DNA of 55,877 bases from a virus (lineage: Duplodnaviria; Caudoviricetes): IMG/VR virus record IMGVR_UViG_3300037510_000220, positions 1 through 55,877 of that record; one strand, written 5' to 3'. The notes beneath the pieces are model-generated. The model was not told where the DNA came from. It saw only the letters and a list, made by a program, of their open reading frames with translations, and searched no databases. How positions within the stretch are numbered: position 1 is the stretch's first letter; each line of letters begins with the position of its first letter. The translations under genes and the position numbers were made by a program. Below, piece after piece: positions 1,890-18,729 of the stretch.

Positions 1890-3115
1890 CCAAAAGCACC
1901 GAACTCGCCCTCCTGCCGCCGCCCGAGCGCGCGGCCGTTGTTCTCGGCACCGCCGAGCGCGTCAAGGAACTCAAGGCCCTGGCCGAGAAATCCGTTGACC
2001 TGATCGAAATCCGCGACCAAACCAGCCGCGACCAGATTCACGCCGCGCGCATGGTCCTGAAGAATACTCGCGTGGACCTGGAGAAAAAGGCCAAGGCCGC
2101 GCGCGATGATGCGACTGCGTTCTCGAAAGCTGTCATCGCCGAGGAAAAGAAGCTGGTCGGCATCATCCAGCCCGAGGAATCGCGCCTGGATGCCATTCAG
2201 ACCGAGTGGGACGACCGCGTTGAGCGTGAGCGCCAAGCCAAGGCCGAGGCCGACCGGCAGCGCATCGCCGGCCTGCAGGAGGCTATCGCAGCCATCCGCG
2301 CCACGCCGCCGCGTTTTGTTGGCGCGCCATCCAGCAAGATTACCGACGCCATCCAGTCGTTGGAACTCACCGACACGGCGGCTTTTGCGGAGCTGCGCGC
2401 AGATGCCGAAACGGCGAGGACGGAAGCAATCGAAGCACTGGCCAAGATTCGCGCCGACGCCGAAGCGCGCGAAGCCGAAACCAAACGCCAGGCCGAGGAA
2501 GCCGCGCGCCTGAAAGCCGAACGCGAAGCCTTCGAGAAGGAACAGGCCGCCGCCAAGGCCAAGCGCGACGAGGAAGAGCGGCAGGCCCGCGAACGCATCG
2601 CCGCCCAGGAGCGCGAAGCCGCTGCCGCGCGCGCCGCCGAGCAGAAGCGCCTGGACGAGCAGCAGGCCGAGATTCGCCGCGCGCAAGCCGAAATCGACCG
2701 CCAGCGCCGGGAGCAAGAGGAACGCGAACACCGCGCCCGCCTTGCTGCCGAAGCGGAGGAAGCCCGCAAGAAGCAGGAAAAGGAAGCGCTGGAGCGCCGC
2801 CAGCGCGAGGCCGCCGAGGCTCAAGAAGCCGCCCTGCGCCGCGCCGCCGAGGAAGCGGAAGCCCGGCGCCGCCGCGAAGAGCAGGAAGCCGCTGAACGCG
2901 CCATTGCCGAGAAGCGCGCCCGCGAGGCTAAGGAATACGAGGAGCGGGTGCGGCGCGAGGATCGCGTGCGGGCGGCGGCGCCGGCCATGTTGACGGCTCT
3001 CATCAGCATTACCGATCACCTGGAGCGCATCGGCGACAGCCGGAAGGATGCGCCGTTTATCGAGCAGGGCCGCGCGGCTATCGCGTTGGCAACTGGAGAG
3101 GAAATCGAAGTATGA
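1886..3115 (+). CDS. Long coiled-coil protein
   Basis: E/R/A/K-rich heptads; AAGGA RBS; ATGA coupling; upstream of recT. Confidence 0.8.
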   Translation: MTKSTELALLPPPERAAVVLGTAERVKELKALAEKSVDLIEIRDQTSRDQIHAARMVLKNTRVDLEKKAKAARDDATAFSKAVIAEEKKLVGIIQPEESRLDAIQTEWDDRVERERQAKAEADRQRIAGLQEAIAAIRATPPRFVGAPSSKITDAIQSLELTDTAAFAELRADAETARTEAIEALAKIRADAEAREAETKRQAEEAARLKAEREAFEKEQAAAKAKRDEEERQARERIAAQEREAAAARAAEQKRLDEQQAEIRRAQAEIDRQRREQEEREHRARLAAEAEEARKKQEKEALERRQREAAEAQEAALRRAAEEAEARRRREEQEAAERAIAEKRAREAKEYEERVRREDRVRAAAPAMLTALISITDHLERIGDSRKDAPFIEQGRAAIALATGEEIEV

Positions 3116-4041
3116 GCAACGCCCTCGCTCTCATCAGCGACGAAATCTACGCGCAGCGCGACAACTTTCTCGCTGTCCTGTCCGACACCTCTATCACCTT
3201 TGAACGCGAGGCCGGCTTCGCCATCCAGTCCATCAGCGCCAGCGACTACGCCATCGGCATTGCCACGAAGAACAAGCAGTCGGTCATCAACGCCGTCACG
3301 AACATTGCCGCCATCGGCATCAGCTTGAACCCTGCCAAGAAGCAGGCCTATCTGGTGCCGCGCGACGGCAAGATTTGCCTCGACATCAGCTACATGGGCC
3401 TGATGGACCTGGCCATGAACACCGGCTCAATCAAGTGGGCAAAGGCCGCGTTGGTGCACGAAAAAGACAGCTTCGAGCTGAACGGCTACGACCGGCCGCC
3501 GGAGCACAAATTCAACCCATTTGCCAAAGATCGCGGCGAAATCGTTGGCGTCTACGTGGTGGTCAAAACCGCTGACGGCGAGTATCTGACCCACACCATG
3601 GAAATCGGCGAGGTATTCGCCATCCGCGACCGCTCGACCGCTTGGAAGGCCTACGTCAAGGACAAGTCCAAAACCTGCCCTTGGGTCACGGACGAAGGCG
3701 AAATGGTCAAAAAGACTTGCGTCAAGCAGGCCTACAAGTACTGGCCCAAGACCGAGCGCCTGGAACAGGCTATCCATCACCTGAACGTGGACAGCGGCGA
3801 AGGCCTGCCGCCCCTGCGCAATGATGTGCCGGAGCATGACGTGCGCCTCAAAGAAAAGTGGATCGAGAAGGCCAACGGCGCGCCTGATGCCGAATCTCTC
3901 AAGCGCATCTGGGCCGATGGCCTGGCCGAAATCCGCCCGACCAAGGACATGATCACTTACAACGCCTTCAAGGCCGCCGTCGAGGCTAAGGGGCGCGGCT
4001 TCAATGAGAAGCAGGTTGAGGGTGAGGAGGTGACGCAATGA
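3112..4041 (+). CDS. recT: RecT/Red-beta family single-strand annealing protein
   Basis: GISLNPAKKQAYLVPR, ISYMGL, PWVTDEGEMVKKT motifs; next to exonuclease. Confidence 0.9.
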   Translation: MSNALALISDEIYAQRDNFLAVLSDTSITFEREAGFAIQSISASDYAIGIATKNKQSVINAVTNIAAIGISLNPAKKQAYLVPRDGKICLDISYMGLMDLAMNTGSIKWAKAALVHEKDSFELNGYDRPPEHKFNPFAKDRGEIVGVYVVVKTADGEYLTHTMEIGEVFAIRDRSTAWKAYVKDKSKTCPWVTDEGEMVKKTCVKQAYKYWPKTERLEQAIHHLNVDSGEGLPPLRNDVPEHDVRLKEKWIEKANGAPDAESLKRIWADGLAEIRPTKDMITYNAFKAAVEAKGRGFNEKQVEGEEVTQ

Positions 4042-6080: not shown

Positions 6081-6986
6081 ATGAAACGCTACAAAGACGC
6101 AAACGGTGAAATCAACGTCCTGGCCATCGCGCGCGATGCCATCCTGCTGCTGGTCGCCCTGATCCTTCTCGTCATCTGCTGGCCCTTCTACACCGTGCCG
6201 ACCGGCTCGCGTGGCGTCGTGACCCAGTTCGGCGCGATCAAGGGCGTGGAGAACGAGGGCCTGGTGATCCTGCCGCCCTGGCAACGCCTGGCCCTGTTCA
6301 GCATCCGCGCCGAGGAAGCGCACATCAAGGACGCGGACGGCGGGACTTTCGACCAGCAGCCGGTCAAGGTCAGCATGACGGTACGGTACAGCATCAGTAT
6401 CGACAAGGTAGCCGAAGTCTACGAAAAATACAGCCACGACGGCAATCTCGCCTCCTACGTGCAGACCGCTACCGGCGAGGTCTTCAAAGCCGTTACCGCC
6501 CGTTTCACGGCCCCGGAACTGCTGTCGAAGCGCCCGCAGGTATCCGGCGAAATCTCGGCAATGCTGCGCTCCAAACTGGCGATCTACGGCGCCCAGGTCA
6601 TCAACATCGACATGACGAACTTCTCATTCGACCCCGCCTATACCCGCGCCATCGTCCAGAAAACGGAACAGGTGCAGTTGCGCGACGCCGCCGAGAACAA
6701 GCTCAAGACCGTCGAGAGCGAGCAAAAGCAGAAGGTGGCGATTGCCGAGGCCGAAGCCAATGCACAGAAGGCCAAGGCGGACGGCGAAGCCTATTCCATC
6801 CGGAAACTTGCCGAGGCCCAGGCGACGGCCCTACAAGTCCAAAACGACGCCCTGGCGAAGAACAAGGATGTACTGGAGCTGCGCCGCATCGAGGTCGAAG
6901 CCGCCAAGGCGCACAAGTGGGACGGGAAGCTGCCGCAAAACATCTATGCCGGCGCGCCGATGCCGTTTTTGAATCTGAGCAAGTAA
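6081..6986 (+). CDS. SPFH/prohibitin (Band 7) family membrane protein
   Basis: N-terminal TM, VPTGSRGVVTQFG, C-terminal coiled coil and KWDGKLP. Confidence 0.9.
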   Translation: MKRYKDANGEINVLAIARDAILLLVALILLVICWPFYTVPTGSRGVVTQFGAIKGVENEGLVILPPWQRLALFSIRAEEAHIKDADGGTFDQQPVKVSMTVRYSISIDKVAEVYEKYSHDGNLASYVQTATGEVFKAVTARFTAPELLSKRPQVSGEISAMLRSKLAIYGAQVINIDMTNFSFDPAYTRAIVQKTEQVQLRDAAENKLKTVESEQKQKVAIAEAEANAQKAKADGEAYSIRKLAEAQATALQVQNDALAKNKDVLELRRIEVEAAKAHKWDGKLPQNIYAGAPMPFLNLSK

Positions 6987-13681: not shown

Positions 13682-13896
13682 GCGCGGAACTTGAGCGGCG
13701 CCTGTACGAGAAGTACGGCCCGCGGCTTGACATGGACCAACTGGCCGAGTTCATGAACATCACCAGGTCCACCCTGGACACCAAGGTCAGCCGGGACACA
13801 ATGCCGCTGGCCACGTACAAGGAGGGCAAGCGCCGGTACTGCAACACTACGGTTTTGGCGGCTTATCTTTCAAGTCGTGAAGCGACTCCGGCTTGA
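13678..13896 (+). CDS. Excisionase-like HTH protein
   Basis: Short HTH (LDMDQLAEFMNITRSTL); convergent with integrase. Confidence 0.75.
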   Translation: MSAELERRLYEKYGPRLDMDQLAEFMNITRSTLDTKVSRDTMPLATYKEGKRRYCNTTVLAAYLSSREATPA

Positions 13897-14845
13897 GATT
13901 CGTATAACGCCGAAGGTGGCGCCAATCCTTGTGACCAGAAACCAGGGCCACTTGCGGAATATCGTAGCCGCGCTCGAACATGGCCGAGATTCCTTCGTGC
14001 CGTAGGTCGTGAAAATGCAGATCGGGAATGTTCAGATCCCGGCAGGCCCAAGTGAACTTGTTGGACAGGGTATGCGGATTGATCGGGAATATCTTGCCGC
14101 TTGCGTGCTCCGGCTGCCTCCTGATGATTTCCCAGGAGTCCCCGAGAAGGGCGATCTCTTCATTGTTGCCGATCTTGTTCCGCGGGTGCTTCCGGTCCCG
14201 GATGATGACGGTCTTCTTCTTGTCGTTCACGTCGGCTCGCAATATGCGGGTGACTTCCCCCTGCCTCATGGCAGTGATGCAGGCGAACAGCGTTGCGTCC
14301 CTATAGGGCTGCTCCAGCGCCCCCAGAATCCGCGCGAACTCATCGTCCTCAGGTCTACGCTCCCGCTTCCCGCCATCGCCTATCAGGCCCAGGTACTTGA
14401 GCTTGGCGCGCGCCTGGTTCATGACCTCCGGGATGCCGTTGGAGGCGTACCGGTAGATCGTGCCGAGCTTGGAGATATCACAGTTGATTGTGTAGGGGCC
14501 GGCCCTCTCCTTGCTCTTTCTCTCGACGGCGAAGGCGATCAGATCCTCAACGGTCAGCACGGCGCTCTTTTTCCCCAAATGTCGGTCCAGGGTTTTCAGG
14601 GTGTAGTGTTCCGTGGATTTGTCATCGATCGGCCGCGACAGGTCACGCAGCCTCCGGTATTCCTTTATCATGTCGGAGACGGTTTCGTGCCTTTCTGGAA
14701 GTCGGCCGGCGTCGAGCTGGTCTTCAATCTCCCGAGCCCATCGCTCTGCATCGGACTTTTTCTCGAAGCGCTTGGTGATCTGCGGCCGGCCCTTCCTGCG
14801 GATCAGCGCCCGCCACTTGCCGTCGATCTTGCAGATGCTTGCCAT
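13847..14845 (-). CDS. int: Tyrosine integrase
   Basis: TAMRQGE, FHDLRHEG, SGHKDWRHLRRY catalytic motifs. Confidence 0.95.
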   Translation of the reverse strand: MASICKIDGKWRALIRRKGRPQITKRFEKKSDAERWAREIEDQLDAGRLPERHETVSDMIKEYRRLRDLSRPIDDKSTEHYTLKTLDRHLGKKSAVLTVEDLIAFAVERKSKERAGPYTINCDISKLGTIYRYASNGIPEVMNQARAKLKYLGLIGDGGKRERRPEDDEFARILGALEQPYRDATLFACITAMRQGEVTRILRADVNDKKKTVIIRDRKHPRNKIGNNEEIALLGDSWEIIRRQPEHASGKIFPINPHTLSNKFTWACRDLNIPDLHFHDLRHEGISAMFERGYDIPQVALVSGHKDWRHLRRYTNLKPESLHDLKDKPPKP

Positions 14846-14982: not shown

Positions 14983-15426
14983 ATGTTCCACGTGAAACAA
15001 CTCACTTTTGACTCAGAACAACTGCTGACCGAGGCAGAGATTGTTGGCCTGGCGCGGGAAATGAAGGTCTATTGCGGGATCTATTTTTTGATCCTGGATG
15101 ACAAGATCGTCTACGTTGGCCAGTCGAACAACATCTATAACCGCTTGGCGCGGCACATCCACGGCAAGAGCAAGAACTTCAATCAGTTCAGCTTCATCGA
15201 GGTTCCGCTCGATCAACTCAATATGGTTGAGACAGCCTACATTCATCACTTCCGACCAAAGTACAACTTCGGCACCAATGGATTTTTGCGCACGCCGGCC
15301 GTGGAGGCTGGGCTGAACCGCGGGAAGAGCGATCGCAAATCATTGACGCGGCAACTCAAGGAATACAACAAGAAGTGGGAGGGGCGCGGCGCAGAGTGGG
15401 CAAAAATGGTTGCGGAAAAGCTTTAG
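14983..15426 (+). CDS. GIY-YIG nuclease family protein (start uncertain, possibly 15061)
   Basis: GIYFL..VYVGQS..RLARH..E..YI..RPKYN. Confidence 0.85.
   Translation: MFHVKQLTFDSEQLLTEAEIVGLAREMKVYCGIYFLILDDKIVYVGQSNNIYNRLARHIHGKSKNFNQFSFIEVPLDQLNMVETAYIHHFRPKYNFGTNGFLRTPAVEAGLNRGKSDRKSLTRQLKEYNKKWEGRGAEWAKMVAEKL
14984..14999. promoter_or_regulatory. parS: parS site TGTTCCACGTGAAACA
   Basis: Exact match to the ParB/Spo0J consensus TGTTNCACGTGAAACA. Confidence 0.8.
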
Positions 15427-15464
15427 ATCGCTTGAAAAATTATTGCATCTTCTGCAAACCGATC

Positions 15465-15493
15465 TTGACTGCCGCGCCCGACAGGCGCAGAAT
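15465..15493 (+). promoter_or_regulatory. Sigma70-like promoter for the ncRNA/tRNA operon
   Basis: TTGACT-17-CAGAAT immediately before the first stem at 15497. Confidence 0.55.
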
Positions 15494-15496
15494 TTA

Positions 15497-16334
15497 GGCG
15501 CTGGATCGTGTGGCCGCCCAGGAAGGAGAACAGCGGGCAGCATCAATCGAAGCCGGCACCGAATCCCGTAAGCCTGTGCAAAGGTGTTACTCCGCAGGCC
15601 AGTTTGTGGCTACCTGGCAAAGCCTCCGGCGCCCACAGCCGCCTTAGTTGGGGGCTGGAACCGTTCTGCAGAGCGCAACCCCAGTCTAACCCTGCATACA
15701 GGTGCGCAGTGCGCCGCCACCGGATGCGAAATGTCCGGGTCAACACGCATGCGGATTGCAGCCATACATACCCCCTTGGGTTGAGGTCATTTGCCTGCTC
15801 AGCAGGATCAGTCCGCAGCCGCCTTGATGAACAGCAGCAGTACCGAAAACGGGAAATAGCGGGTCGAGTCCGCAGAAGCGATTGGTGAACTTAAGATAGC
15901 CATGAGCAGATCGACTAAGAAAAGTCGCCCGTGCAATACAGCAGCAGTACCGATTTGGTGAATGCGCAGGCTGATGCGCGAATATTAATCCGAGAATGTC
16001 AGCAAAGCCGTGTGAGCGACGACAGAAAGCGAAGCCAGTGGACGGTCCACATTAAATGCCGACTCGGAGAAACTCACATGCCGGGGATCAGCGCCGGCCA
16101 CCAAACTACCTGCCGGCCGTGCGACGGGTACGATTTATGCACGGATGGCAGCCGGGAAAGACCGGCACCAAGAAGCCTGGGTGCCTGGTTAAAAATGCTA
16201 AGGGGCCGTTCATGAGCGGCGATAACTCGAGGCGCGAGGCCCCAGCCTTGTTGGTGACAGCACTGCGGGAGTGGGTCTAACGCCTCCCCGGGCCTGCCGA
16301 TCCGGCAGTGTGGCGGTGAGTCGCCTTCCAACAA
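15497..16334 (+). ncRNA. Putative structured ncRNA region (tandem stem-closed modules) ahead of the tRNA cluster
   Basis: No convincing ORF; closing stems 15497-505/15625-33, 15750-58/15809-17, 15954-60/16099-105, 16248-54/16328-34. Confidence 0.6.
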
Positions 16335-16348
16335 CCACAGGAGCCAGC

Positions 16349-16558
16349 ATGCTACCAAACCGAACCCGCCAGGCCGTTGCAAGCGTCACCAGACAGCTCC
16401 AGGCGCGCGGCGTCCGCGGCATGCACTTCACCTACGCCCCAGGCGCCCACAGGCTCTCCCGCAACCGCCAAGTGCTCGCCCGGGTCCGCGTGCTCAAGGC
16501 GTACCTGCACGGCAAGTCGCGGCCGGCGGCGCCGATCGGCGATTCAGTGCCAGCATGA
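16349..16558 (+). CDS. Small basic hypothetical protein
   Basis: AGGAG RBS before ATG. Confidence 0.55.
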   Translation: MLPNRTRQAVASVTRQLQARGVRGMHFTYAPGAHRLSRNRQVLARVRVLKAYLHGKSRPAAPIGDSVPA

Positions 16559-16743
16559 AGTCCCGCGCCACCATCTTCGCCGCCTCCCCGCACCGGAGCA
16601 ACTGGAAGCGCCAGTTTCGCCGCGCCATGAACCACAGAGCGCCCTACCCCACGCGCAAGGAGCGGCCCTGTTGCCTGCTCGGGGAGAAGTTTAGGCTCGT
16701 CAGGTCGGAGCGGCATCCGTGGCGGGTGCGTATCTGTATCTGA
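16555..16743 (+). CDS. Small basic hypothetical protein
   Basis: ATGA coupling. Confidence 0.45.
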   Translation: MKSRATIFAASPHRSNWKRQFRRAMNHRAPYPTRKERPCCLLGEKFRLVRSERHPWRVRICI

Positions 16744-16756
16744 TGGGAACCAATCA

Positions 16757-16832
16757 GCCGCTGTAGCTCAGCAGGCAGAGCAGCCGACTCGTAATCGGCA
16801 GGCCATCCGTTCGATTCGGATCGGCGGCGCCA
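16757..16832 (+). tRNA. tRNA-Thr(CGT)
   Basis: Cloverleaf, loop CTCGTAA, TTCGA T-loop, CCA. Confidence 0.9.
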
Positions 16833-16913
16833 AAAAACTTCTTGCATCAAATGCAAATCCGTGGCAGCATCTCGATATCATGAATCGCACCGATCAACCA
16901 CGACCGACCACCT

Positions 16914-16988
16914 CTGGGCGTAGCTCAGTGGCAGAGTCCGCGCCTTGGAAGCGCGATGTCGTTGGTTCGATCCCAACCGCCCAGACCA
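16914..16988 (+). tRNA. tRNA-Pro(TGG)
   Basis: Cloverleaf, CGCGC-CTTGGAA-GCGCG, CCA. Confidence 0.9.
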
Positions 16989-17021
16989 CCCGATCATTAC
17001 GATACCGACTCAGTTAACACT

Positions 17022-17099
17022 GGGCCGATGGCGTAATAGGTAAACGCGACACGCCTCAAAAGCGTGACTCTCTGGGTTCGAATCCCAGTCGGCCTACCA
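17022..17099 (+). tRNA. tRNA-Leu(CAA), short variable loop
   Basis: CACGC-CTCAAAA-GCGTG, TTCGAAT, ACCA. Confidence 0.88.
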
Positions 17100-17104
17100 T
17101 CTAC

Positions 17105-17190
17105 GGGTAGGTGGGTGAGCGGCGAAGCCAGGAGCCTGTAAAGCTCTTACATCAGAAACAGCGCTGGTTCGAGTCCAGCCCTACCCACCA
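17105..17190 (+). tRNA. tRNA-Tyr(GTA)
   Basis: GGAGC-CTGTAAA-GCTCT, long variable region, ACCA. Confidence 0.88.
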
Positions 17191-17196
17191 CGAATT

Positions 17197-17273
17197 GCCC
17201 CCTTGGCCAAATTGGCAAAGGCGCCGCGCTTAGAACGCGGAGATTCTCGGTTCGAGTCCGAGAGGGGGTACCA
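17197..17273 (+). tRNA. tRNA-Leu(TAG), short variable loop
   Basis: CCGCG-CTTAGAA-CGCGG, ACCA. Confidence 0.88.
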
Positions 17274-17279
17274 CGACAC

Positions 17280-17366
17280 GGATTGCGCTGCTGGGTTGGC
17301 CGGCAACTAGTCTCGAAAACTAGGGTGACCGAAAGGTTAGGAGTTCGACTCTTCCGCTTTCCGCCA
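17280..17366 (+). tRNA. tRNA-Ser(CGA)
   Basis: CTAGT-CTCGAAA-ACTAG, long variable arm, GCCA; two acceptor mismatches. Confidence 0.8.
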
Positions 17367-17403
17367 AGAATGCGTAGACTTGGCGCTTACTTGCGAGGTC
17401 TTA

Positions 17404-17763
17404 ATGGGCAACAAAAAGAGCGACAAACTCGGCATGAATGAAGGTACCGCGAGGAATGTTCTCTTGCGCGATACGTTATTCAGATTTGTTGTCAATTCCG
17501 GGCACCACTGCTTTAGGTGTGGCGGCGTCCTGGAACGGAGCAACTTCAGTCTTGACCATATGGAATCTTGGCTGGACGCCGAGAACCCATCCGCCACTTT
17601 CTTCGATCAAGACAACATTGCCTTCAGTCACTTGAGTTGCAATTCGGCCGCCGGCGCAAAAAAGCAACGGCCGAGAAAATATACGCCGGAAGAGGCGAGG
17701 CAACGAGCAAGAGAAAGCCGGCAAAGGTACGAGGCAAAAAAGAAACTCCTAGTCACGGCATAG
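17404..17763 (+). CDS. HNH endonuclease
   Basis: CFRCG..SLDH..NIAFSHLSCN; GAGG RBS. Confidence 0.8.
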   Translation: MGNKKSDKLGMNEGTARNVLLRDTLFRFVVNSGHHCFRCGGVLERSNFSLDHMESWLDAENPSATFFDQDNIAFSHLSCNSAAGAKKQRPRKYTPEEARQRARESRQRYEAKKKLLVTA

Positions 17764-17774
17764 CTCTCCGCCAA

Positions 17775-17859
17775 GGTAGGTTGGCAGAATGGTATTGCAG
17801 CGGCTTGCTAAGCCGTGGGTGGAAACGCCCTGTAGGTTCGATCCCTACACCTACCGCCA
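17775..17859 (+). tRNA. tRNA-Ser(GCT)
   Basis: GCGGC-TTGCTAA-GCCGT, long variable arm, GCCA. Confidence 0.9.
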
Positions 17860-17860
17860 C

Positions 17861-17890
17861 TTGCATCAAATGCAAAACTGTGCGCATAAT
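17861..17890 (+). promoter_or_regulatory. Internal promoter with TTGCA-N5-TGCAA palindrome over -35
   Basis: TTGCAT-18-CATAAT; same palindrome at 16842-16856 and 15443-15457. Confidence 0.5.
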
Positions 17891-17939
17891 ATCGAATGCG
17901 CTTCACTCAATCCACCCGAACAACTACGGCCTAGCTTAA

Positions 17940-18016
17940 GCCGCCGTAGCTCCAATGGTAGAGCGCTCCTTTCGTAAGGGTGAGGTTGCAGGTTCAAGTC
18001 CGTGCCGGTGGCACCA
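17940..18016 (+). tRNA. tRNA-Thr(CGT), second copy, bulged T-stem
   Basis: Loop TTCGTAA, ACCA. Confidence 0.8.
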
Positions 18017-18022
18017 CACACT

Positions 18023-18098
18023 AGTCTTGTAGCTCAGTTGGTAGAGCGCCGGCCTGTTAAGCCGGATGTCCTAGGTTCGAGCCCTAGCTTGACTGCCA
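18023..18098 (+). tRNA. tRNA-Asn(GTT)
   Basis: CCGGC-CTGTTAA-GCCGG, GCCA; two acceptor mismatches. Confidence 0.85.
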
Positions 18099-18101
18099 AA
18101 C

Positions 18102-18206
18102 ATGAAACTCATCGAACTGTTCGCCGCATTTCTTGGAGCCATCTGCGGGCTGGCCATGCGGCTGATTGACTGGACGCTCGGCAGGCGAAGAACCTTCTTC
18201 GACTAA
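18102..18206 (+). CDS. Possible 34-aa membrane peptide between tRNAs
   Basis: MKLIELFAAFLGAICGLAMRLIDWTLGRRRTFFD; no clear RBS. Confidence 0.3.
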   Translation: MKLIELFAAFLGAICGLAMRLIDWTLGRRRTFFD

Positions 18207-18216
18207 GCGCCTCATG

Positions 18217-18290
18217 GCGCCCTTAGCTCAGCGGATCAGAGCAGCCGGCTTCTACCCGGCGGGTCGGGGGTTCGAGTCCCTCAGGGCGCG
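18217..18290 (+). tRNA. tRNA-Arg(TCT), no encoded CCA
   Basis: GCCGG-CTTCTAC-CCGGC; GCGCCCT/AGGGCGC acceptor. Confidence 0.88.
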
Positions 18291-18297
18291 TCAGGCA

Positions 18298-18729
18298 TCA
18301 GGCGGATTTCCAGTTCATTTGCGATAGCACGGCCTTGATGCAAGCGACACTGACACCGAATCTGGCTGCCAAGTCTTTTTTCATCACCACGCGAGGCTTG
18401 TAGTCGCGACGAATCGCCCGAACGTCATCAACGGTTAACTTCGGGCGCGCGCCATGCGGCATGTCTTTGGTCCGGTTTTTCTCACCGACGATAATTTGCA
18501 CGTTGCCGATGCAATACCCAATTTCGCTAACGCGGCGATCCATCTGATACTCACCATGTCTGCGACCACGCTGCGCATACTTCCCAGAAGCGGCCCAAAC
18601 CGACGCCCACTCTTCGAACGTCAGATCCCATGAAATACCACGACGCTTTGCGTTCGATCTGGCATTGGTAAAATCGCGGCGGCGTGGTTCCGCGGCAGAT
18701 GGCGTAAAATTCTGTGCAACCATGCTCAC
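18298..18729 (-). CDS. HNH-like endonuclease with C-terminal HTH
   Basis: NAKRRGISWDLTFEEW..MDR..GYCIGNV..N; KLTVDDVRAIR..LAARFGVS. Confidence 0.8.
   Translation of the reverse strand: MSMVAQNFTPSAAEPRRRDFTNARSNAKRRGISWDLTFEEWASVWAASGKYAQRGRRHGEYQMDRRVSEIGYCIGNVQIIVGEKNRTKDMPHGARPKLTVDDVRAIRRDYKPRVVMKKDLAARFGVSVACIKAVLSQMNWKSA

Follow-up and report, generated by a model that had tools for sequence, protein, structure and literature searches.

A Conserved, Putative tRNA-Shaped RNA Gene in the Non-Coding Stretch Ahead of a Phage tRNA Cluster

Genomic Context of the Stretch

The window considered here, of 55,877 nt, comprises an entire virus record of IMG/VR, which is rated complete, represents a temperate phage, and is contained in sequencing runs that are soil metagenomes. 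Between the gene of a GIY-YIG endonuclease and a cluster of tRNA genes, this genome presents a stretch of about 840 nt (15497-16334), located approximately 600 nt from the integrase gene, a proximity that brought an attP site into consideration, and for which an earlier note, made from the sequence alone, had proposed a promoter followed by an array of stem-closed RNA modules, forming either one ornate RNA or a polycistron of tRNA-sized units. The stretch is best explained as leader or spacer DNA without coding function that holds one genuine RNA gene of 152 nt, referred to here as the element, which is shaped like a tRNA and belongs to a family found in many phages (Table 1).

Table 1. Features of the window in and around the stretch 15497-16334, with the positions, strand and main observations for each.
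Feature	Positions	Strand	Observations
Early genes	up to 13681	+	gene layout
Integrase gene	13847-14845	-	
GIY-YIG endonuclease gene	14983-15426	+	
Gap without genes, between the GIY-YIG gene and the tRNA cluster	15427-16350		no coding signal
Promoter-like TTGACT-17-CAGAAT	15465-15493	+	9 of 12 consensus matches; count at chance level, hence no evidence of function
Non-coding part with no signal of conservation or structure	15497-15953	+	contains the first four stems of the earlier note and short internal repeats
Whole element	15954-16105	+	152 nt; upstream of the tRNA cluster and on the same strand
Closing (acceptor-like) stem, 5' strand UUUGGUG	15954-15960	+	7 of 7 standard pairs with the 3' strand
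Junction AAU	15961-15963	+	all three bases present in each of the 80 aligned members
Hairpin A (D-arm-like) GCGCA-GGCUGA-UGCGC	15964-15979	+	identical to the consensus
Lineage-specific insert of 100 nt, in the position of the anticodon arm	15980-16079	+	predicted single long irregular hairpin
Hairpin B (T-arm-like) GCCGG-GGAUCAGCG-CCGGC	16080-16098	+	
Closing stem, 3' strand CACCAAA	16099-16105	+	abuts hairpin B, spacer of 0 nt
Second locally stable hairpin region	16108-16175	+	z of -2.1 to -2.5 in sliding windows
Two doubtful small ORFs	16350-16558 and 16555-16743	+	ATGA overlap; AGGAG precedes the first
Ten tRNA genes, split by an HNH endonuclease gene (17380-17763)	16757-18290	+	
Endonuclease VII/HNH-like PHROG gene	18298-18729		3' of the tRNA cluster
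Exonuclease gene, followed by lysis and structural genes	beyond the endonuclease VII/HNH-like gene	-	

Coding Potential and Folding of the Whole Stretch

The stretch lies on the strand of the tRNA genes and presents a purine-rich skew similar to that of the genes on the + strand. Protein coding was considered and rejected, given that the codon-usage scores of the candidate open reading frames (ORFs) range from -0.04 to -0.28, in comparison with +0.17 +/- 0.10 for the long ORFs of the phage, that no match to Pfam or PHROG was found below an E of 0.08 in the 22 of 28 stop-to-stop frames that were scanned (the other six lie mostly outside 15469-16764), and that a search of 5.8 billion proteins gave no homologue of the longest ORF, of 126 amino acids. 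The statement of the earlier note that the stretch contains no convincing ORF is thus borne out by codon usage, protein families and the homologue search.

The seven complementary pairs from which an array had been deduced are all present as strings near the places where they had been reported, and those of 7 bp or more were found again in the scan of stems. The number of stems, their tiling and their folding are all equal to those of shuffled sequences. The stretch contains 15 stems that reach 7 bp or more, versus 18.1 +/- 4.2 in 200 dinucleotide shuffles, the best non-overlapping tiling of self-closing units covers 604 nt, versus 583 +/- 78, and the minimum free energy of the 838 nt is -317.7 kcal/mol, versus -318.6 +/- 7.0 kcal/mol, which corresponds to a z of +0.12, with 12 of 20 shuffles folding as well. 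The comparison with shuffled controls had been set beforehand as a test by which the array could be refuted, and the array fails it. The minus strand gives a z of -1.0, and in sliding windows of 120 nt only 16090-16270 stands out (z of -2.1 to -2.5), with the control tRNAs reaching -2 to -3. The hexamers of the proposed promoter do exist, but they are not above chance, as one such site was found against 1.8 +/- 1.4 expected; judging from the sequence, it is possible that a leader transcript starts there.

Kinship with the large phage RNAs or with ribozymes, which had also been suggested, was not supported by Rfam 15, in which only the tRNAs are matched at the gathering score over the whole window, with nothing credible at an E of up to 10 in 15300-16800. 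The GOLLD and ROOL models are unmatched at both of these levels, and the models of self-cleaving ribozymes, including the HDV-like ones, give no match, with the presence of a separate theta model in Rfam 15 being unconfirmed. All of these non-coding RNAs of phages are commonly found close to tRNA genes, as are some copies of the element, but the element is far smaller, presents no sign of self-cleavage, and is matched by none of their models.

The possibility that the whole of 15497-16334 forms one large ornate RNA of the GOLLD or ROOL type, or about seven chained tRNA-sized structured RNAs, is thus very improbable, and already close to refuted. The non-coding nature of the stretch, its location on the strand of the tRNAs, its skew, the one genuine unit at 15954-16105 and the somewhat better folding of 16090-16270 are all compatible with this idea, but the z of the whole region, the chance-level number and tiling of the stems and the lack of a match in Rfam argue against it. 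In addition, the covariance model described below, run with its filters off, sees no second copy of the family in the window, and 15430-15950 has no homologue in the phage, IMG/VR, genome and metagenome collections, with only short matches at chance level in 401 genomes. What stands is a single tRNA-like unit and, among the seven stems, TTTGGTG/CACCAAA, which is upheld by conservation and covariation. The anti-defence role proposed for the modules is pure speculation. In GC-rich DNA, series of complementary words such as these are a product of chance, and conservation alone revealed the genuine element.

Recognition and Spread of the Family

A BLAST comparison of 15430-16760 with 401 sampled genomes of one bacterial phylum matched 15953-15980 in several genomes, at 96-100% over 24-27 nt, with the remaining matches being GC-rich and at chance level. 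One of the matches to this core is a spacer of a CRISPR (clustered regularly interspaced short palindromic repeats) array, and the others lie in prophage-like DNA, including one that precedes a tRNA gene by about 530 nt. A pattern of 23 nt taken from the core in the window retrieves more than 120 IMG/VR contigs, a lower bound counted among the matches listed, and a second conserved block, which makes up the 3' half of the element, follows 10-200 nt downstream in 118 of 123 matches, representing 104 distinct sequences.

An alignment of 80 distinct members (A2) was used to build a covariance model (R1), which gives 83.6 bits (E 3.6e-21) at 15951-16108 of the window, a sequence that is itself among the 80 used for training, and no more than 10 bits anywhere else in it. 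Strong matches of the model (E < 1e-5) were found in five of 151 sampled bacterial genomes. One subtype is present in 99 phage records, including P1-like, Stx2 and Klebsiella phages, 1644 of 5426 E. coli genomes carry this subtype as well, and the G+C content of the carrier loci varies from 45 to 67%.

Searches that started from other portions of the locus gave negative results. IMG/VR contains no relative of the GIY-YIG protein, and the genome contigs none of the integrase, while the relatives of the exonuclease gene (three IMG/VR and 20 genome loci, 16 of the latter being covered by the tRNA scan) come without the tRNA island and without the region. The relatives of the first tRNA have only the tRNA in common with the window, and the exact 22-mers at 15609-15630 and 16160-16181 have no match in IMG/VR or in the JGI metagenomes.

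The spacer mentioned above belongs to a bacterial CRISPR array (L080, G151:C346, at approximately 1400-1700), whose repeat of 28 nt is presumably of type I-F. This spacer of 32 nt corresponds to the conserved core of the element (15950-15981 of the window), with 26 contiguous bases matched and 27 of 32 in agreement with the window, where no matching protospacer-adjacent motif is found beside the protospacer. As the spacer matches the core, some relative of the RNA gene has been targeted by CRISPR at one time.

Architecture of the Element

The family consensus consists of a closing stem NNNGGUG/CACCNNN, the AAU junction, hairpin A, an insert of 10-200 nt, and hairpin B in the form GCCGG-AGAUCAGCA-CCGGC, and the copy in the window presents all of the features by which members are recognised, i.e., the stem of 7 bp, the lack of a spacer, the AAU junction, both hairpins and the complementary loops. 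The loop of hairpin B follows the pattern (N)AUCAGC(N), and that of the window, GGAUCAGCG, retains AUCAGC, whose complement, GCUGAU, is found in hairpin A. The inserts fall into 81 clusters in 118 members, with the insert of the window clustering with none of the other 117, and one locus (L199) carries an "empty" form in which the insert has only 12 nt.

Some inserts are related to tRNAs themselves. For example, a complete tRNA-Pro lies inside the variable insert of one member (L193, 522-745), and another (L160, 3943-4057) has an insert with D-arm-like and T-arm-like tRNA sequence and no acceptor stem. Hairpin B of the member with the "empty" form (6702-6719) resembles positions 30-47 of the Rfam family rydB, a small RNA of E. 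coli K-12, in 17 of 18 bases, at a score of 13.7 bits (E 1.4) that is at chance level, and this resemblance could possibly be a trace of kinship.

Evidence for a Folded RNA

The element is, with high probability, a real conserved RNA that folds into the shape described above, as indicated principally by the changes found in its paired positions. In the 80 members, 95.1% of the cells of the alignment are paired, versus 89.6% in shuffles, and 86 cells carry a change in both bases, versus 24, with neither of these values being reached in any of 500 shuffles; in slid controls, 27-52% of the cells are paired. The outer pairs of the closing stem (4:176, 5:175 and 6:174) each present four to five pair types and are unpaired in at most one of the 80 members, while the next two pairs outward are broken in 30 and 47 of the 80, which indicates that the closing stem has exactly 7 bp. 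In hairpin B, four of the five pairs are changed on both sides, and the members found by the model include compensatory stems of hairpin A, such as GCGGA/UCCGC, GCACA/UGUGC and GCGUA/UACGC. The same helices are obtained by RNAalifold unaided, and single short members fold into the shape of the element with z of -2.2 to -2.7, two others reaching only -1.1 and -0.8.

The strand that folds can also be recognised, given that 30 G.U pairs were found versus six A.C mismatches in 1360 cells, which points to RNA of the + strand. Hairpins A and B have complementary loops (GCUGA with UCAGC), with CAG[CU] being kept in loop B of 87 of the 95 model matches, and one copy, with GGCGA and UCGC, has a matched loss of the middle base in both loops.

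These data also bear on the idea that the conserved halves are a site at the DNA level, such as a hot spot of recombination or insertion or a binding site for a protein, with the middle portion being inserted cargo. Two highly conserved arms around a hypervariable middle, the "empty" form of 12 nt, and the position of the element at the module boundaries of mosaic phages would all be expected of a site of this type, but the covariation preserves base pairs, the wobble is specific to one strand, and the inserts, of 10-200 nt, are non-coding, so that this explanation is extremely unlikely. A hammerhead was considered separately, as the loop contains CUGAUG, and was rejected, given that the covarying hairpin A is unfit for the core of a hammerhead and that Rfam gives no match.

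Genomic Neighbours across the Family

A tRNA gene on the same strand lies within 300 nt of 11 of the 118 members, the nearest tRNA lies at 300-3000 nt in five, and the nearest tRNAs are on the strand of the element in 18 of 18 cases. There is no fixed spacing to the downstream ORF, the start codons being spread over 0-350 nt. Hairpins similar to terminators are found downstream within 70 nt in 21 of 99 cases and within 250 nt in 32 of 99, versus 20 of 99 upstream.

This distribution is relevant to an alternative in which the element is not a free RNA and acts in cis, as a signal of processing or punctuation, of antitermination or of the stability of its operon. Its placement inside operons, where it follows Q or cI or lies on either side of tRNAs, would be in line with such a signal, and tRNA-like punctuation is represented in other systems by the t-elements of plant mitochondria and by MALAT1/mascRNA. 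However, the variable distance to the downstream start codon, the existence of tandem copies, and the diversity of the inserts, which a pure cut site would not need, all argue against this alternative, which is regarded as quite improbable.

The P1-like phage JL22 (L208) carries three copies in tandem, at 2513-2649, 2942-3045 and 3203-3328, after the genes of tRNA-Asn and tRNA-Thr. These copies are antisense to the annotated plp and gp76, whose prediction may be an artefact of an unrecognised RNA locus. In mEp460, the copy lies under "hypothetical proteins" and adjoins cI, and the sites of the element in RefSeq E. coli genomes are without annotation.

Comparison with Known RNAs

The element shares with the tRNA (RF00005) a terminal stem of 7 bp stacked without a gap on a hairpin of 5 bp, a second hairpin after a junction of 3 nt, a candidate loop-loop contact at the position of the elbow, the proximity of tRNA genes on the same strand, and a U at position -1, which is present in 51 of the 80 members. 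On the other hand, it has no anticodon arm, no GG/TPsiC signature (its loops have 6 and 9 nt) and no fixed CCA. ARAGORN and RF00005, at 29 bits or more, recognise only the 10 true tRNAs of the window, and no tRNA was found in 15300-16756 at an E of up to 10.

Similarities were also found with C4 of P1 and P7, isrK and the CI RNA of P4 (clan CL00128), which are small phage RNAs with a closing stem around two hairpins, and whose Rfam consensus has a second hairpin GCCGG...CCGG and a 3' strand that ends in ..CCACC. Two of them, C4 and CI, are substrates of RNase P. In C4, however, the closing stem has 17 bp and is separated from hairpin 2 by 8 nt, the loops pair with mRNA targets and not with each other, and there is no variable insert. 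The models RF01695 and RF01394 (C4/isrK) match neither the window nor the members; they do match other parts of the same loci (L209, 1-186; L177, 5934-6122), never the element.

Certain RNAs that are not tRNAs have tRNA-like termini and are made or processed alongside tRNAs, such as the stable RNAs "species 1 and 2" encoded in the tRNA cluster of T4, the tRNA-like domain of tmRNA, and YrlA, and in the engineered tRNA scaffold a foreign insert occupies the anticodon position of a tRNA frame. The element may be compared with all of these in its general organisation. The YrlA model gives a chance-level match of 25.6 bits, located only on the real tRNAs of the JL22 locus. The M3 RNA of phi80, a classical substrate of RNase P, was considered as a relative and rejected, as it is annotated as an oop homologue in the phi80 record and R1 sees no copy in this phage.

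STnc100 (RF02076) and PasD have the same habitat as the family, i.e., lambdoid, Stx and P1-type phages, and the STnc100 primer published in PMC12370729 starts with CATGGTGAAT, in agreement with a 5' start in GGUGAAU. The divergent tandem copy of JL22 reaches 35.1 bits with R1 and 34.4 bits with STnc100, whose gathering score of 47 bits is not attained on any of the loci tested, L161, L164, L175 and L177 included. The typical members, including that of the window, have no match to STnc100 at an E of up to 10 or up to 1, and the hairpin CCGGG-AGGCA-CCCGG of STnc100 differs from hairpin B of the family consensus.

This comparison is the background to a further alternative, in which the element forms a structured domain at the 5' end of a small RNA (sRNA) of the Hfq type that acts by base pairing, with the effector being the single strand and the terminator that follow, as has been proposed for the prophage sRNAs STnc100 and PasD, while the tRNA-like fold would merely protect or define the 5' end. 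In many enterobacterial members, an A/C-rich tail of 10-70 nt and then an intrinsic terminator do come after the element, as seen in the counts given above, and the STnc100 score of the divergent P1-like copy, although below the gathering score, and the start of the primer point in the same direction. However, in the window the 700 nt downstream of the element contain no terminator-like site, other members are directly followed by tRNAs or ORFs, and the conservation is found in the tRNA-like frame and not in the tail. Given, in addition, that STnc100 stays below its gathering score on four loci of the divergent type and leaves the window unmatched, this alternative is considered unlikely.

No model of Rfam 15 matches the typical members of the family, none of six core strings, as DNA or RNA, was found in the papers searched, and these gave no description of the element. 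PMC10690425 (2023) presents a catalogue of 8495 candidate RNAs from IMG/VR, and its supplementary list may contain the family. With moderate confidence, the family is taken to be unnamed. If it is undescribed, it would be a common structured RNA that current annotation has overlooked in well-studied phages, and it may account for some of the "empty" intergenic DNA near phage tRNA clusters.

Proposed Processing of the Element

The best explanation for these results, and one that we hold to be rather probable, is that the stretch, a leader or spacer that does not code for protein, contains one tRNA-shaped RNA gene, whose product would be a scaffold processed by RNase P. This enzyme measures the stack of 12 bp and the elbow of its substrates and prefers a U at -1. 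Based on the stack of 12 bp, the elbow and the U at -1 of the element, it is proposed that the element is transcribed together with tRNAs and excised as a stable RNA. In this mechanism, the element would be transcribed together with the downstream tRNAs, RNase P would read the stack formed by the acceptor-like and T-like helices and the elbow and cleave immediately 5' of the closing stem, and the 3' end would be trimmed as in a tRNA. The conserved frame would thus serve as a scaffold for processing and stability, a natural analogue of the engineered tRNA scaffold, and the lineage-specific insert would be the working part, acting as a regulator or a decoy. The element is a putative substrate of RNase P, as judged from its geometry and its U at -1, and the mechanism of processing and scaffolding is advanced tentatively, as somewhat less than probable.

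A broader proposal, which we regard as rather doubtful, is that temperate phages of Proteobacteria, from those of soil to P1, Stx2 and Klebsiella phages, carry an unnamed class of natural tRNA-scaffold RNAs, in which a nearly invariant frame, similar to the acceptor, T and D arms and with a kissing-loop elbow, would be read by the tRNA-processing machinery of the host. The hypervariable payload of this frame, with 81 types in 118 copies, would serve each lineage as its own regulator or be a decoy in conflicts between phage and host or between phages. This class would be expressed from lysogenic operons (after cI), late operons (after Q) and tRNA operons. A tRNA-like frame with an exchangeable insert would provide a testable model for phage small RNAs that are stable and precisely processed.

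A number of observations weigh against the interpretation of the element as a processed tRNA-like RNA. In the alignment, the invariance of hairpin A and of AAU is partly an artefact, given that both lie inside the search pattern, with AAU being shown also by the matches of the covariance model. The 158-nt element of the window itself folds with a z of only -0.85. The loop-loop pairing is argued from complementarity and from two compensatory examples, and one member (L119) has no complementarity between its loops, while another (L214) has two mismatches. A total of 107 of the 118 members are not beside a tRNA, so that the link with tRNA operons is an enrichment and not a rule, and the 94 distinct ORFs found upstream include eight of the Q antiterminator, eight of the CI repressor, five of packaging or head proteins and four of recombination. 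The excess of terminators downstream weakly fits a small RNA that stands alone, and the 3' tail is A/C-rich, with no fixed CCA. Moreover, we infer the transcription, the processing and the ends of the element from the sequence, and nothing explains the remaining approximately 690 nt of the stretch.

Other Features of the Stretch and Its Surroundings

In the part that precedes the element, the 16-mer ACAGCAGCAGTACCGA is present in two exact copies at a distance of 107 nt (15831-15846 and 15938-15953). The second copy, which stops at the base before the closing stem, could be what is left of a 5' flank that was duplicated, or else a signal for processing. Tandem repeats or iterons were rejected, as TRF finds none and the 53 matches of ACAGCAGCAGTACCGA in IMG/VR are single and unrelated. 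A decayed tRNA was likewise rejected, given that the T-loop-like GGGTCGAGTCC at 15861 has no acceptor partner and no tRNA model matches.

After the element, the locally stable region contains CCGUGC/GCACGG (16117-16144), one of the seven stems of the earlier note, and a small hairpin, GCCGG-GAAAGA-CCGGC, at 16151-16166. This hairpin was found in six phage loci, including the window (the others are L058, from 8286; L112, from 1135; L151; L193, from 359; and L194, from 11980), and in many cases (T)GACA stands directly before it. A tRNA-Thr gene starts 6 nt after one of the copies, and four are near members of the tRNA-like family, while the chance expectation, by our own estimate, is about 0.05 matches in the 2 Mb searched. 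A similar frame, ACCUGCCGG...CCGGCACCAA, occurs in L082.

The two small ORFs lie outside the stretch, between it and the tRNA genes; they have no family match, and their codon scores are atypical. No RNA run is listed among the sequencing runs that contain the stretch. Small, nearly identical contigs from four soil DNA runs cover parts of 15559-16736, with too few changes for a test of the pairing. Among the near-identical strains of other soil runs, one difference is an insertion of GGC after 16311, another is a possible skip of 96 nt over 15980-16077, which is weak, as one of its sides has only 29 nt, and in one strain 16545 is joined to 16757, so that the second small ORF is lost.

The tRNA cluster is flanked or interrupted by three genes of the endonuclease type (GIY-YIG, HNH and endonuclease VII/HNH-like), which suggests that it is a mobile island rich in homing endonucleases. 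It includes two tRNA-Thr(CGT) genes, at 16757-16832 and 17940-18016, which are unlike in sequence and score 64.9 and 45.9 bits, respectively.

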